Virus record (IMG/VR): IMGVR_UViG_3300033070_001497 | Location: 32,001-96,000 of that record | Reading direction: 5' to 3' (one strand) | DNA from: a virus | Lineage: Duplodnaviria; Caudoviricetes | DNA: 64,000 nt | In this document: positions 8,819 to 58,510 of the stretch, piece after piece | How positions within the stretch are numbered: the first letter of the stretch is position 1 | How the letters are laid out: every line of letters begins with the position of its first letter | Notes under the pieces: generated by a model | What the model was told of the DNA's origin: nothing | The model's database searches: none | What the model saw: only the letters and a program-made list of their open reading frames with translations | Position numbers and translations under genes: made by a program

Positions 8819-9844
8819 ATGCACACGCACGTCTTCGACATCGATGACACCCTGGTTCTCACCGACGGTAAGATAAAGGTCGTCAACCCATTGAATGGGG
8901 TCAGGCTACTTTCGGCCAAGGAATTCACCAAGTACCAACAGCACCCTCACGATTCGTTCGACTTCTCCGAGTTCAACGACGTGGATAAGCTGATGAACGG
9001 CACGCTAGTGAAGGACGTGTGCATGATCATCAGGGATTGCCATGACGCTGGGGAACGGATAGCCGTGATCACCGCAAGGGAGCAGGTGTGGCAGATCGTG
9101 CACTTCCTGAAGGAACGTATTGGAGTGACTATTCCACCGGAGATGGTCCTTGCGGTCAACGAGAAGCCGCGGAGGTTCTTCGGCGACAACGTCCCAGAGA
9201 TGAAGAGGCAGGCCATCAAGCGCCTGATCGAGTCTGGATCATCCAAGATCGACTTCTACGACGATGATCCGATGAACCTAGAGCTGGCTGCGATCGAGTC
9301 TGCCAAGCACGGAATCCCATTCCGAGCCATCCATGTCGATGACAAGTGGCATCGAACTAGCCTTCCGAAGAGGAGGATCGATGAGAAGATCGATGGGTTC
9401 TCTGGCATCCTGAAGCTGATCACTGGGATGTCGAACGCATCCACTTCCAAGGTCGGCTGTCTTGCCCTGAACAAGGACTTTCGGAACATCGCCGCATTCG
9501 GTTGGAACGGTTCGTATTCAGGAGCGCCGACGAACCCAGAGACCGGGGCAGAGGAGGAGTCCCTCGAACCAGGCATGAGCGGATTCATCCACGCCGAGGT
9601 CAACATGATCGCCAAGTTCAGGGAGCCGGATCCACAGAACTACATCGTCCTGTGCAGCCTGTCCCCTTGTGCGATGTGCACGAAGATCCTGGTCAATTCA
9701 GGGTTCAAGATGGTGTACTGGATAGACACCTATAGGGAGACCAATCACCTCCGGATCTTCCAGGAATGTGGAGTCATGTGCGGAAACATCGATGACCTCA
9801 AGAACCGAATCAACGAGATCCAGGGCAAACCCGGTCATAGATAA
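8819..9844 (+). CDS. fusion of HAD-superfamily phosphatase and dCMP deaminase
   Basis: N-terminal HVFDIDDTL, ITAR, K and FYDDD (HAD motifs I-IV); C-terminal KVGC, GWNG, HAEVN and SPCAMC (zinc deaminase). Confidence 0.85.
   Translation: MHTHVFDIDDTLVLTDGKIKVVNPLNGVRLLSAKEFTKYQQHPHDSFDFSEFNDVDKLMNGTLVKDVCMIIRDCHDAGERIAVITAREQVWQIVHFLKERIGVTIPPEMVLAVNEKPRRFFGDNVPEMKRQAIKRLIESGSSKIDFYDDDPMNLELAAIESAKHGIPFRAIHVDDKWHRTSLPKRRIDEKIDGFSGILKLITGMSNASTSKVGCLALNKDFRNIAAFGWNGSYSGAPTNPETGAEEESLEPGMSGFIHAEVNMIAKFREPDPQNYIVLCSLSPCAMCTKILVNSGFKMVYWIDTYRETNHLRIFQECGVMCGNIDDLKNRINEIQGKPGHR
9837..9843 (+). promoter_or_regulatory. putative late promoter ATAGATA
   Basis: Recurrent motif, 4 nt before ATG 9848. 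Confidence 0.65.
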
Positions 9845-9847
9845 GCC

Positions 9848-10348
9848 ATGGATGGACTTCTTCTTAGGATCGCCAGGGACCTGATCGTGGATTTCCAACG
9901 CAATGGATTAGACGTTGGTAGGGTGAGGATCAAGATCTTCCCAAGGGACAAGGCTAACCCAAAGTTCATCTTCCGAGGATACCAAACCGGGGAGCAATTC
10001 ATCTCTGCTTTCGACTCGGTGCTCACTAGCCCGAACTACCTCTGCTCGGCCGGTTCGTTACCGGTCATCGAGAACATCGAGCTCAACAACACAAACCTCT
10101 CGTTCTACAACTCTTACAGTTGGACGAACATACTGGATCGCAAGACGTTGGCAGAAAAGCTGGCCGCCGATTTCATCCGAGACGATGCTAGAGCCAAGGA
10201 GGCCGATCGGTACAAGGCGTACATGTCAAACAGGATCGACCAATACGTCTCGGATGCGAACTCCGCGGTGAACGTCAGGATAGAATCCTACGTGGATCCA
10301 TGCTACGTAGACGCGGGCTATGTTTCTCCGCAATCCGAGGTGTATTGA
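9848..10348 (+). CDS. hypothetical protein, probably virion-associated
   Basis: Preceded by ATAGATA; C-terminal YVDPCYVDAGYV motif; opens the structural module. Confidence 0.7.
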   Translation: MDGLLLRIARDLIVDFQRNGLDVGRVRIKIFPRDKANPKFIFRGYQTGEQFISAFDSVLTSPNYLCSAGSLPVIENIELNNTNLSFYNSYSWTNILDRKTLAEKLAADFIRDDARAKEADRYKAYMSNRIDQYVSDANSAVNVRIESYVDPCYVDAGYVSPQSEVY

Positions 10349-10377
10349 AGATCGCCTCTGTTGGGTTCCATCGGCGA

Positions 10378-10384
10378 ATAGATA
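10378..10384 (+). promoter_or_regulatory. putative late promoter ATAGATA
   Basis: Recurrent motif, 6 nt before ATG 10391. Confidence 0.65.
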
Positions 10385-10390
10385 CCGCCA

Positions 10391-56281: not shown

Positions 56282-56763
56282 TGGAAACCAAGCCGGTCGA
56301 GGACACACAAAGGATCACCGAGGAGCAGAAGTGCGACAAGCTGGACGAGGTCTTCAAGACGGAGCGCGACAAGTGGTCGGTCCTGATCAAGGACCTCGTT
56401 GCCAAGGTGAAGGACGTGACCGCGATCACTGAGGCCCAGGCCACGATGCTCTCTTACCGGCACATCTTCAACGACCAGATCGCGAAGTACAGATCCACCC
56501 TCGCGAAGAGGAAGGCCGGTAATTCCAAGCAGTGGCAGATCAGGTTCAACTACTACAAGACCCCGAACCCTAACCTCCAGATCCGTTACCAGGATAGGGA
56601 GCTCCAGGAGCACATCAAAGCCGACCTCGCGTTCCGCACGAGGGAGAACGACATCCTCATGAACCAGATCACTTGGTTCGAGGACGCCGTCCAGACGATG
56701 GACAAGCTAGGCTACTCGATCAAGGTTGCCGTGGACCTGGAAACAAAGCTCAAGTACCATTGA
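56281..56763 (+). CDS. uvsY: recombination mediator, UvsY-like
   Basis: Helical; HIKADL...QITWFEDAVQTMDKLGYSIKVAVDL resembles the UvsY C-terminus; adjacent to UvsW. Confidence 0.6.
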   Translation: METKPVEDTQRITEEQKCDKLDEVFKTERDKWSVLIKDLVAKVKDVTAITEAQATMLSYRHIFNDQIAKYRSTLAKRKAGNSKQWQIRFNYYKTPNPNLQIRYQDRELQEHIKADLAFRTRENDILMNQITWFEDAVQTMDKLGYSIKVAVDLETKLKYH

Positions 56764-58268
56764 TCTGGAAGCTCATCAATGGCGATAGGACGCTGTGCTT
56801 GGTCGAGGCCAGCAAGCTGGAGGTAGACCAGCTCCGGCTCTCCTTCACGAAGACGATCCCAACCGCAAGGTTCGATCCAAGGGTGAGGGCTGGCCACTGG
56901 GATGGCAAGATCTCGTACTTTCGGTCTGACCGTTACCTGCCTTCGGGGCTATGGGGAGAGCTGGTGGAGATGGCGGAATCGTTCGACTTCAGCCTGGAGA
57001 TCGAGGACATCGAGCGCCTGTTCGACCACTCGATAGACGAGCAGGAGTTCAAATCCTGGGTGGAATCGAAGTGGAAGGATGCAGAGCTCAAGCCGCGCGA
57101 TTACCAGATCCAGTCGGCCTACAAGATCCTGAGGACCAGGAATTGTCTCTCTGAGCTCGCGACCTCGGCCGGTAAGTCTCTCATCATCTACATGGTCCTG
57201 GGGTACCTGTTGGAACGCGGTGATTCCAAGAGGGTCCTCATGATCGTCCCGAACACTGACCTGGTGATCCAGGCCTCCGAGGACTTCGAGCAGTACAACT
57301 CCGAATCGGTCAGGGTCGACCTGAACATCCAGCAGATCTACGGCGGCTCCAAACTCAAGGAATCCTCGAACGTTGTCATCGGCACCTACCAGTCGCTGAT
57401 CAACAAGACCGAGGCCTACTTCGTGCACTTCGACACCGTCGTCGTGGACGAGACCCACCGTGCCAAGGGCTACTCGATCAGGAGCATCCTCGAGAAGTGC
57501 ATCAACTCCACACGAAGGTTCGGCCTCTCTGGGACGATCCCTAAGGTCGGTACCCTTGACCGGTTGACCATCATGTCGTACACCGGCCCGGTCGTGAGCA
57601 CCGTCAAGGCCGATTTCCTTTCGAAGAAGGGGTACATCTCCAAGTGCAAGGTGATCGTGGTGGAGATGGACTATGCGGCCAAGGAGGTCAAGGAGGCATT
57701 CGAGACGATCTACGACAGTGGGCCAGACCAACGCAAGACACTTTTCAACCTCGAGAAGAACTATGCGATCGAGTCCAAGGGCAGGCTATCGTTCATCACA
57801 GATTTCATCCTCAAGGTCAGGAAGAATTCGCTAGTCCTCTTCCACCGGGTCGAGTATGGGCAGGCCCTGTACAACGCCCTCAGGGCCAAGACGGAGAGGC
57901 CGGTGTTCCACATCGACGGAGGGACCGAGAAGGATTTCCGGGAATCATTCAAGGATGACATGGAGGAAGGCGTCGACAAGATCATGGTCGCCTCGTTCGG
58001 AACGTTCTCCACTGGCATCAACGTCAAGAACATCCATGCGGTCTTCCTGACCGAATCCTTCAAATCGGAGGTCATCATCCGTCAGAGCATTGGCCGTGGG
58101 CTCAGGCTCCACGACGATAAGGACCGGTTGCTGGTGATCGACTTTGCGGACGATTACTCGATCAACTCGTTCGAGAACTATCTCATGGACCACTCCAAGG
58201 AGCGTAGGGCCATCTACAAACAGGAGAAGTTCCCATTCGAGGTGCGTCGGGTCAAGTTCGAAGCGTGA
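56760..58268 (+). CDS. uvsW: SF2 DNA helicase, UvsW-like
   Basis: WDGKISYF, PRDYQ, ATSAGKS, DETH, GLSGT, GTFSTGINVKN, QSIGRGLR. Start re-called at TTG 56760 (TTGA overlap). Confidence 0.92.
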   Translation: MIWKLINGDRTLCLVEASKLEVDQLRLSFTKTIPTARFDPRVRAGHWDGKISYFRSDRYLPSGLWGELVEMAESFDFSLEIEDIERLFDHSIDEQEFKSWVESKWKDAELKPRDYQIQSAYKILRTRNCLSELATSAGKSLIIYMVLGYLLERGDSKRVLMIVPNTDLVIQASEDFEQYNSESVRVDLNIQQIYGGSKLKESSNVVIGTYQSLINKTEAYFVHFDTVVVDETHRAKGYSIRSILEKCINSTRRFGLSGTIPKVGTLDRLTIMSYTGPVVSTVKADFLSKKGYISKCKVIVVEMDYAAKEVKEAFETIYDSGPDQRKTLFNLEKNYAIESKGRLSFITDFILKVRKNSLVLFHRVEYGQALYNALRAKTERPVFHIDGGTEKDFRESFKDDMEEGVDKIMVASFGTFSTGINVKNIHAVFLTESFKSEVIIRQSIGRGLRLHDDKDRLLVIDFADDYSINSFENYLMDHSKERRAIYKQEKFPFEVRRVKFEA

Positions 58269-58277
58269 CCCAGACCG

Positions 58278-58284
58278 ATAGATA
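58278..58284 (+). promoter_or_regulatory. putative late promoter ATAGATA
   Basis: 4 nt before ATG 58289; context ATAGATAAGCCATG is identical to 9837-9850. Confidence 0.7.
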
Positions 58285-58288
58285 AGCC

Positions 58289-58510
58289 ATGCTACGCTAC
58301 GGCCAGTTCGTCGCCCTCAACAAGGACATCACTGCCAAGAAGGACCTCGAGAACCGCCAGAACGAGTACAACCGTTTTGCGTCCGAGGCGCTTTCCAAGT
58401 TTGGGGCTTCGACGATCCATGATCTCACGGACGAGGACTATGACCTCTTCTTGGAAGAAATGAAGCGTTACAGGCGGGCTAAGATGGTCTCCGAAACCAA
58501 AGGCCGGTGA
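58289..58510 (+). CDS. small hypothetical protein (paralogue of 8515..8748)
   Basis: Late motif upstream; MLRYGQFVALN N-terminus. Confidence 0.75.
   Translation: MLRYGQFVALNKDITAKKDLENRQNEYNRFASEALSKFGASTIHDLTDEDYDLFLEEMKRYRRAKMVSETKGR

Follow-up and report, generated by a model that had tools for sequence, protein, structure and literature searches.

A start-codon-proximal ATA[G/C]ATA box, a candidate T4-type late promoter, in an uncultured huge-phage lineage

Boxes and genes in the window

The window, which is the whole 64,000-nt stretch that was analysed, belongs to an IMG/VR phage fragment (109 kb, about 38% complete). Within it the heptamer ATA[G/C]ATA (ATASATA) stands ahead of genes for gp25-like and wedge-like baseplate proteins, a tail fibre, large virion proteins and a RuvC-like protein. 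Its copies are listed below, with the spacer given as the number of nucleotides between the box and the start codon.

9837..9843, plus strand, ATAGATA: 4 nt to ATG 9848 (166-aa gene); the box shares bases with the TAA stop of the preceding gene
10378..10384, plus strand, ATAGATA: 6 nt to ATG 10391 (900-aa collagen-like tail fibre); the sixth base 3' of the box is A
17698..17704, plus strand, ATAGATA: 7 nt to ATG 17712 (582-aa gene)
19463..19469, plus strand, ATACATA: 4 nt to ATG 19474 (baseplate-wedge-like, 176 aa); start backed by orthologue N-termini
25289..25295, plus strand, ATAGATA: 24 nt to ATG 25320 (410-aa S1-domain protein)
26654..26660, plus strand, ATAGATA: 4 nt to GTG 26665 (416-aa gene)
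28678..28684, plus strand, ATAGATA: 4 nt to GTG 28689 (gp25-like baseplate wedge, gene 1 of a gp6-like operon); start backed by orthologues
41439..41445, plus strand, ATACATA: 4 nt to ATG 41450 (1711-aa virion protein)
46601..46607, plus strand, ATAGATA: 60 nt to GTG 46668 (966-aa gene)
53128..53134, plus strand, ATAGATA: 18 nt to ATG 53153 (RuvC-like resolvase)
58278..58284, plus strand, ATAGATA: 4 nt to ATG 58289 (73-aa gene, first of a four-gene unit)
3891..3897, minus strand, ATAGATA: 30 nt to ATG 3860 of the minus-strand gene 3426-3860; outward-facing, in a divergent intergenic region
7868..7874, plus strand, ATACATA: intragenic, function uncertain
8403..8409, plus strand, ATACATA: intragenic, function uncertain
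35071..35077, plus strand, ATACATA: intragenic, 127 nt to ATG 35205, function uncertain

The earlier note had placed the heptamer exactly 4 nt before six starts, at longer distances from others (10378, 17698, 25289, 46601, 53128 and, on the minus strand, 3891), and ahead of many structural genes. All six coordinates are correct, the longer spacings come to 6, 7, 24, 60, 18 and 30 nt respectively, and baseplate, tail-fibre and other virion genes are indeed preceded by it on both strands. Beyond the window, at genome 31510 on the minus strand, lies a seventh 4-nt case; its start is GTG, as are two of the six within the window. The start codons of three of the six (19474, 28689 and 41450) are confirmed by orthologue N-termini. 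The 41450 protein shares its N-terminus, MS(R/K)ILKRTSFGL, from Met1 onward with the closest relative, through whose contig the orthologue of this 1711-aa protein was located; a search of IMG/VR for loci related to the protein gave no matches.

The spacer is 4-7 nt in about half of the copies and 14-60 nt in a third, and the three intragenic ATACATA copies lie 105-127 nt ahead of the next gene start. The 60-nt leader after the 46601 box has no hairpin better than shuffles (z -0.05). Over the 109 kb, about 14 transcription units have a first cistron at 4-7 nt. The minimum is 4 nt: a spacer of 0-3 nt, or an overlap with the ATG, occurs at none of the 21 sites that were aligned. The A or G of the start codon is the fifth or sixth base 3' of the box in nine sites, and three more have an A one base before the ATG; in all 4-6-nt cases the fifth or sixth base is either the start-codon A/G or an A just before it.

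Four of the five minus-strand copies in the contig precede minus-strand genes, and in three divergent intergenic regions the boxes point outward. The shortest of these regions is 30 bp if the box-proximal GTG is taken as the start of the minus-strand gene and the ATG as that of the plus-strand gene; homologues confirm neither start. Stop-codon recoding in the left 32 kb was considered and rejected, as frame translation gives ordinary plus-strand genes and the long minus-strand ORFs are shadows.

Enrichment and exactness of the heptamer

ATASATA occurs 15 times in the window, compared with 4.01 +/- 2.05 times in dinucleotide shuffles, none of which (0 of 100) reached 15. Fourteen of the 15 copies lie on the plus, coding strand, and the whole 109-kb contig has 27 copies, 22 plus and 5 minus. 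In the 60 nt ahead of called genes ATAGATA is the most enriched heptamer (10 of its 17 copies against 0.4 expected, P 3e-11). When heptamers were ranked by their position 4-7 nt before the first start of ORFs of at least 70 aa, ATAGATA came first of all with 8 of 17 copies; unrelated heptamers had at most 3. Bar one antisense copy, the ATAGATA copies (17/17) are intergenic or at gene ends. Every intergenic gap of at least 13 nt between window positions 17690 and 53152 contains a box, and the majority of genes have none.

The sequence of the box appears to be exact. One-mismatch variants fall inside genes and have no strand bias, and ATAWATA is not enriched in this phage (3 observed, 2.1 expected). 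In the alignment of 21 sites, 16 have G at the centre and the other 5 have C; A and T never occur there. Upstream, conservation is limited to a mild preference for R at the base directly before the box (position -13), and neither a -35 nor any further element is conserved; the five bases 3' of the box are G+C-rich, with T in 0-3 of the 21 sites.

Comparison with T4 and with related phages

The T4 late promoter is TATAAATA at -13..-6 (PMC2988020). Its recognition involves gp55, gp33 and the gp45 clamp (PMC2988020; PMC7892883), and gp55 flips out bases -12, -9 and -8 (PMC7892883). The box described here is likewise a single -10-like element without a -35, its ATA-N-ATA corresponds to T4 positions -12..-6, and it stands ahead of virion genes on either strand. 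R-ATA-S-ATA agrees with TATAAATA at 6 of 8 bases and does not reproduce the consensus itself: the centre base -9, which in T4 is flipped into a gp55 pocket, is G or C here, and the first base is a purine here but T in T4. The segment just 3' of the box is G+C-rich here, whereas in T4 it is A+T-rich (PMC2988020).

Related huge phages have ATAAATA or GATATATA ahead of the same baseplate genes. In the gp25-like orthologues ATAAATA lies at +10 to +16 nt and GATATATA, where that is the box, at about +19 nt; the orthologues of the 17712 gene have (G)ATATATA 16-26 nt upstream, and in L014 CATAAATA precedes 6 of 16 genes (P 3e-9). Overall, orthologous boxes in relatives lie 10-28 nt from their starts, and since the closest relatives have 16-26-nt spacers, the fused layout of box and start is not ancestral. 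The base that seems to differ between lineages is -9, which is A, T or G/C. ATAGATA itself was rejected as the box of the AT-rich relatives because its copies there are intragenic Ile-Asp coding. No near-identical phage turned up when 21 kb were compared by megablast with 50,697 phage records, and no published account of ATAGATA as a phage promoter, or of late promoters of PAU/Lak-type phages, was found in the literature.

A gp55-like protein was found in all five near-complete relatives (cut-off E <= 1; four at E 1e-15 to 1e-16, one weak at E 0.002) and in LR756500 (E 7e-35), so that all six complete relatives searched have one, five of them strong (E 1e-15 to 7e-35) and one weak (E 0.002). 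These proteins retain T4 Y97 and T99 within an NPxAYxTQ motif, and with them the Tyr stacking on A(-12). The contig, with its 109 kb and 38% completeness, gave no match to gp55, sigma-70 region 2 or gp45, and a sigma search of it with PF04542, phrog_234 and phrog_12791 found nothing. We infer the sigma factor of this phage from its relatives, since the fragment itself has no gp55 gene. gp45 (phrog_223) matched neither the contig nor four relatives; at the cut-off of 0.01 used for the relatives the control genomes were also missed, which makes that search uninformative. A scan of IMG/VR and metagenome contigs with gp55-like profiles kept 160 loci, all at 46% GC or less, and found no gp55 gene on GC-rich (54%-GC) DNA.

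Altogether these comparisons suggest that ATA[G/C]ATA, or R-ATA-S-ATA, is most likely a form of the T4-type late promoter particular to this lineage.

Predicted start site and possible leaderless translation

In the full account that we consider probable, R-ATA-S-ATA would be the counterpart of T4 late promoter positions -13..-6, and a small gp55-type sigma on the host RNA polymerase core would read the non-template strand of the box without a -35. Transcription would start 5-6 nt 3' of the box, and in about 14 units, those with a 4-7-nt spacer, the start codon would be placed exactly at the start site. The mRNA of the first cistron would then have a leader of 0-2 nt and follow a leaderless translation route, and later cistrons would be translated via ATGA-type overlaps. 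Promoter activity, a sigma encoded by this phage, the position of the start site and a leaderless mode of translation are all predictions from sequence comparison. In T4 numbering, the A of an ATG that follows a 4-nt spacer falls at -1 and its T at +1, which means that a leaderless message would have to begin one base nearer to the box than in T4. About half of the boxes here lie 4-7 nt from a start codon, whereas T4 late genes have leaders bearing a Shine-Dalgarno sequence.

It is plausible that the messages of many boxed genes begin on the start codon itself. Counting for this are the lack of any spacer below 4 nt, the placement of the start-codon A/G, or of an A just before it, at the fifth or sixth base, the three confirmed starts, and the host-type boxes found 4-5 nt ahead of three ATGs in the contig. 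Counting against it are the GTG at two of the six 4-nt starts in the window and at genome 31510 minus, and the finding that leaderless mRNAs make up just 4-5% or so in the studied Bacteroidota. In E. coli, GTG works poorly as the start of a leaderless message.

The earlier note had also pointed out that the short-spaced genes have no Shine-Dalgarno. This is true, yet the signal is depleted throughout the genome and its lack is not special to these genes: GGAG or GAGG is found at -20..-5 in 7% of 95 genes, compared with 17% of random in-gene 16-mers. With the signal lacking phage-wide, its absence ahead of the boxed genes cannot be used as evidence for leaderless messages. The suggestion that much of the virion proteome is leaderless was overstated, because the genes concerned are only about 14 first cistrons in 109 kb, and the late genes are mostly internal cistrons, joined by ATGA-type overlaps. 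As for the idea of a variant T4-type late promoter with leaderless transcripts, its promoter part is supported by comparison, and its leaderless part is plausible and fits the geometry.

Host-type promoters and other known systems

Bacteroidota primary-sigma promoters have a -7 box, TAnnTTTG at -12..-5 (PMC9723704, PMC7366714), as in Flavobacterium (PMC9723704), and leaderless mRNAs account for about 4-5% in the studied Bacteroidota hosts (PMC9723704, PMC7366714). About eight host-type TAnnTTTG boxes are present in the contig, three of them 4-5 nt before an ATG, and the start-codon-hugging layout is therefore common to host-type and late boxes. The late box differs in sequence and presumably in its sigma and timing. 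A related motif, CATAGAA, is present within the leaders predicted for two host-type promoters; CATAGRA was rejected as an over-represented motif (10 observed, 11.3 expected), and its position alone is suggestive.

Sevostyanova et al. (2007) are said to have found the middle and late transcripts of the Thermus phage phiYS40 to be leaderless. Deinococcus-Thermus has promoters of the "-10 region adjacent to ORF" type, with TANNNT about 6-7 bp ahead of the ORF (PMC12340547). Those systems resemble the present one in having a single -10-type box within a few bp of the start codon, no Shine-Dalgarno, a leaderless mRNA (predicted or proven) and a minimum-distance requirement. They differ in host phylum, the signals here being of Bacteroidota type, in sigma factor (a phage gp55-type sigma would act here, the host primary sigma there) and in spacer, which is 4-5 nt here and 6-7 there.

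Alternative explanations

The heptamer may instead act in the mRNA, either as an A/U-rich initiation enhancer that replaces the Shine-Dalgarno and is perhaps bound by host or phage S1, or as an endonuclease processing site that frees cistrons with short leaders. The fixed peak spacing from box to start codon, the phage-wide lack of Shine-Dalgarno sequences, the S1-domain protein encoded by the phage and the CATAGAA within two predicted host-type leaders all fit this explanation. Intrinsic terminators in the sequence do not exceed shuffled expectation, nor do sigma-70-type promoters, and with no intrinsic terminators between units, read-through RNAs would carry the element. However, for a third of the copies the start is 14-60 nt away, the orthologous boxes of relatives lie at 10-28 nt, and most genes have no box. 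The exact sequence is needed, which general A/U-richness would not demand, and the box equals the T4 promoter box base for base save -9. Where boxes point outward in divergent regions of down to 30 bp, a transcript bearing the box must start inside the opposite gene. We regard an mRNA-level role as unlikely.

A late promoter could also serve the downstream genes only, with transcription starting at or after the T or G of the start codon (T4 +6 or beyond), the abutted gene being translated from read-through alone and the tight spacing reflecting compaction. T4 numbering, which sets +1 on the T of the ATG for 4-nt spacers, would agree with this, as would the GTG at two of the six 4-nt starts in the window, and 9848, 28689 and 58289 are small first genes of long operons. 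The lack of terminators also makes read-through transcription likely. On the other hand, compaction by itself would leave room for spacers of 0-3 nt and for boxes running into the ATG, neither of which is seen at any of the 21 sites, and the clustering at 4-7 nt, where the fifth or sixth base is a purine, argues that the start codon is set at the start site. The 1711-aa gene at 41450 is a single-gene unit with no other gene before the next box, at 46601, so there is no downstream gene for its box to serve. This explanation seems improbable.

A by-product of chance, composition or codon usage (ATA-GAT-A is Ile-Asp, and TAG..TAA gives stops in more than one frame) is very improbable and already contradicted by the shuffle counts, which no shuffle matched, and by the heptamer position rankings, in which ATAGATA is first: AT-rich relatives do carry ATAGATA mostly inside genes as Ile-Asp codons, and the heptamer has stops in two frames and once provides the stop of the upstream gene (9842-9844), but here the copies are intergenic or at gene ends with one antisense exception, and upstream stops mostly precede the heptamer.

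Meaning for the phage lineage

A broader and more speculative idea, to which we give little credence, is that the programme is essentially leaderless in all temporal classes, with TAnnTTTG, CATAGRA and ATA-S-ATA boxes fused to starts in a phylum where leaderless mRNAs are rare. The -9 G:C pair, in either orientation, would perhaps be read as the hypermodified cytosine of the phage, and late transcription would be licensed on modified phage DNA only.

If the favoured account of a variant T4-type late promoter close to the start codon is true, late genes of this uncultured lineage of huge phages could be recognised by the box, with units and true starts callable from sequence, and the gp55-flipped base -9 would vary by lineage between A, T and G/C. 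It would be another case of a T4-type late promoter fused to the start codon, in which virion operons open leaderless. These leaderless operons would occur in a host group that does not use Shine-Dalgarno sequences and in which leaderless mRNAs are uncommon, and start-site choice by such ribosomes would become directly testable.

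A G/C-centred box close to start codons

The heptamer ATASATA (ATAGATA or ATACATA) occurs 15 times in the window, where 4.0 +/- 2.05 copies were expected, and 14 of these lie on the plus strand; the whole contig holds 27 copies (22 plus, 5 minus). Gene calling by codon-usage score yielded 95 genes, of which 91 lie on the plus strand. In the 60 nt upstream of the 95 called starts, ATAGATA showed the strongest enrichment of any 7-mer (10 of its 17 copies against 0.4 expected, P 3e-11). A position ranking independent of the gene calls, which took the first start of every ORF of 70 aa or longer on either strand, placed it first among all heptamers, with 8 of 17 copies 4-7 nt before a start and unrelated heptamers at 3 or fewer. 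One-base variants (ATAGATB, ATAGABA, ATBGATA and others) were intragenic and without strand bias, and the canonical T4 core ATAWATA was not enriched (3 against 2.1). The earlier note had placed the motif near starts at short spacings; that observation held, and all of its coordinates and spacings proved correct.

Across the contig, the spacer between box and start codon is 4 nt in seven cases, 5 nt in two, 6 nt in four and 7 nt in one, the remainder being 14-68 nt; no case is shorter than 4 nt.

Short-spaced boxes outside the window (genome coordinates)
2090, minus strand: spacer 5 nt, precedes the likely true ATG of a 559-aa gene
17820: spacer 6 nt
19833: spacer 5 nt
31004, minus strand: spacer 6 nt
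31510, minus strand: spacer 4 nt, precedes a GTG

The boxes at 31510 and 31004 head a minus-strand tail-fibre operon (genome 28196-31505), and those at genome 14921, 17820 and 19833 directly adjoin tRNA genes on the 3' side. Intragenic ATACATA copies at window 7868, 8403 and 35071 each have the next gene start 105-127 nt downstream; they may have arisen by chance, or may act as internal promoters that give long leaders. At genome 2146 and 14650, what reads as ATACATA is in reality ATACATAGAA, downstream of host-type boxes. The sole intergenic canonical ATAAATA (window 53935-53941) is found 112 nt upstream of the gp32-like SSB gene (ATG 54054).

Comparison with orthologues confirmed three of the six predicted 4-nt starts in the window, one of them a GTG. 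Alignments begin at residue 1 for the genes starting at 19474 (MQIA vs MYIK/MKIH) and 28689 (GTG; VPIDFYF vs MPVD/MAID), and the product of 41450 begins MSRILKRTSFGL where the closest relative has MSKILKRTSFGL.

Source of the DNA and likely host

The IMG/VR record is linear, 109,314 bp long and ~38% complete (CheckV), with ~54% GC; the window is its bases 32001-96000. It encodes T4-like replication genes (gp32-like SSB, primase, split family-B polymerase, SbcC, DnaB-like helicase, RNR and NAD ligase), a gp6-like baseplate wedge and collagen-like tail fibres. The search of the phage collection returned no DNA-level relative. At the protein level the closest phages comprise the uncultured huge phages LR756500 (462 kb, 40-43% identity) and LR756501/3/4, Lak megaphages, Sphingomonas phage PAU and jumbo phages of Tenacibaculum, Chryseobacterium and Flavobacterium, so the contig is a huge-phage fragment.

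The polymerase is encoded as separate N- and C-terminal genes, with the ribonucleotide reductase large-subunit gene and others intervening (L003 4650-6032, 6029-8587, 10327-11505). Several tail-fibre proteins carry collagen-like Gly-X-Y repeats (L002, a piece of the record, 16017-16505, minus strand; window 10391-13093). More than 20 tRNA genes, together with a tRNA of anticodon CUA (amber suppressor), form an array at genome 2.5 kb and 14.8-20.9 kb (L001, another piece, 2499-2570 and 14836-19821; L002 up to 5879); the contig's genes read normally in the standard code despite the suppressor.

The contig has about eight copies of (TTGT)TAnnTTTGC in intergenic DNA on the plus strand.

Intergenic (TTGT)TAnnTTTGC boxes, coding strand
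Window: 876-883, 6995-7002
Genome: 2130, 3082, 9599, 14625, 22830, 23651

In Bacteroidota, this type of element is the primary sigma's -7 box (PMC7366714), placed at -12..-5 (PMC9723704). GGAG/GAGG is present at -20..-5 of 7% of genes, compared with 17% for random 16-mers taken inside genes, and regions upstream of genes are A/C-rich; Shine-Dalgarno absence is known for Bacteroidota (PMC6847099, PMC3155529). Together with the hosts of the relatives, the -7 boxes and the genome-wide absence of Shine-Dalgarno sequences suggest a Bacteroidota-type host. The earlier note had stressed that boxed genes lack a Shine-Dalgarno, which is true but not special to them; since the absence is genome-wide, it carries no weight at these genes.

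Likeness to T4 late promoters

The T4 late promoter is an 8-bp box, TATAAATA, spanning -13..-6 with T at -13, and has no -35 element (PMC2988020). ATA-S-ATA agrees with T4 positions -12..-6 except at -9. In an alignment of 21 sites, only a purine at -13 is conserved upstream of the box, and the five bases 3' of it are G+C-rich.

The boxed genes include a gp25-like gene (28689), a wedge-like gene (19474), a tail fibre (10391) and large virion proteins, as well as an S1-domain protein (25320; PF00575, 1e-25) and a RuvC-like resolvase (53153). The protein with the S1 domains, which are RNA-binding (window 25320-26552, 410 aa), lies inside the baseplate region and is among the few boxed genes with a 24-nt leader. 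Every co-directional gap of at least 13 nt between 17690 and 53152 contains the box; of the five copies on the minus strand, four stand before genes of that strand.

Three divergent intergenic regions carry outward-facing boxes: genome 2079-2160, genome 31506-31535 and window 3861-3947. Of these, the region at genome 31506-31535 has minus-strand ATACATA 4 nt from a GTG, back to back with plus-strand CATAGAA 5 nt from an ATG; its 30-bp length presumes plausible starts, namely the box-proximal GTG on the minus strand, whose ORF has its first listed start 45 nt further upstream, and the plus-strand ATG rather than an upstream GTG. Were the box an RNA element there, its transcripts would have to originate within the opposite gene; a promoter acting at the DNA level is the simpler explanation.

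About a dozen non-structural genes (helicases, a kinase and others) have CATAGRA at a distance of 4-9 nt upstream of their starts. Its count is not enriched (10 against 11.3), and it may represent either a second class of promoter or an element of the mRNA.

CATAGRA copies
Window: 3918, 8805, 15562, 61805
Genome: 12423, 26020, 31524, 99556, 104766, 109195

The gp6-like protein, used as the query of a scan, brought up 59 related loci. Upstream of the gp25-like gene, where the contig's phage has ATAGATA with a 4-nt spacer, related loci have ATAAATA at +10 (L063, L006) or +16 (L062, L010), or GATATATA at about +19 (L017, L018, L021, L029, L039, L045). Orthologues of gene 17712 have (G)ATATATA at +16 to +26, the closest relative having TTGAATATATAGAA at +19; in related locus L014, 6 of 16 genes have CATAAATA 18-28 nt upstream (P 3e-9), and GATATATA lies 16-32 nt upstream in other loci. 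Leaders in the relatives are thus ordinary in length. ATAGATA itself was rejected as a box in AT-rich relatives, where it is Ile-Asp coding. The clade therefore keeps ATA-N-ATA boxes at homologous places, N being A, T or, in the contig's phage, G/C.

Of the non-template bases, T4 gp55 flips out those at -12, -9 and -8, with A(-12) stacked against Y97 (PMC7892883); the base that varies between lineages is therefore one that the sigma reads directly. The search for a gp55-like sigma, which the earlier note had proposed, gave no match to sigma-70 region 2, gp55 or gp45 in the 109-kb, ~38%-complete contig. All five near-complete relatives (344-434 kb; three with terminal repeats) match phrog_234 (T4 gp55), four strongly (E 1e-15 to 1e-16) and one, G003, weakly (E 0.002), and LR756500 matches a profile of these gp55-like proteins at E 7e-35. 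The proteins are 119-124 aa long, keep NP(F/H)AYxTQ, corresponding to T4 H95, Y97 and T99, and belong to a large family (at least 489 metagenome hits). Among the scanned loci no gp55-like copy was found on 54%-GC DNA, so for the contig's phage we still infer the sigma. Altogether, we consider it moderately probable that the box is a variant T4-type late promoter.

Probable leaderless starts

If transcription started 5-6 nt after the box and selection removed leaders, the 4-nt floor and the pile-up at 4-7 nt would be predicted. Simple genome compaction would also give tight spacing, but would permit spacers of 0-3 nt as well. In T4 numbering, the A of the ATG falls at -1 with a 4-nt spacer and at +1 with a 5-nt spacer; with 6-nt spacers the sixth base is A in 4 of 4 cases, and a start there would give a 1-nt leader. 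C stands just before the start codon in five of the seven 4-nt cases, which fits the usual preference for a pyrimidine at -1 and a purine at +1.

Host-type TAnnTTTG boxes lie 4-5 nt before ATGs at genome 22830, genome 23651 and window 876, and the published -7 box geometry (PMC9723704) puts +1 there on the A of the ATG or one base earlier. These boxes lend independent support to the leaderless reading, and suggest leaderless early transcripts too. Against it stand a spacing that differs from T4's by one base, GTG start codons in two of the six 4-nt window cases (three of all seven in the contig), the G+C-rich segment to be melted, and the rarity of leaderless mRNAs in Bacteroidota (3.7-5.5%; PMC9723704, PMC7366714). 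On these features of the sequence, leaderless starts are probable, given that the box is a promoter.

The literature search turned up no paper describing late promoters in the huge-phage clade or a promoter role for ATAGATA in phages. Thermus phage phiYS40 reportedly has lone -10 boxes with leaderless mRNAs. In Deinococcus-Thermus, leaderless mRNAs driven by lone -10 boxes 6-7 bp before ORFs are proven (PMC12340547), and variant late boxes are known in the T4 family, e.g. in Aeh1 (PMC2988020). The suggestion that much of the virion proteome is leaderless was too strong: neighbouring genes overlap by 4 nt (ATGA-type) at about 20 junctions in the contig, so most virion proteins would come from internal cistrons, and the leaderless effect would reach first cistrons only.
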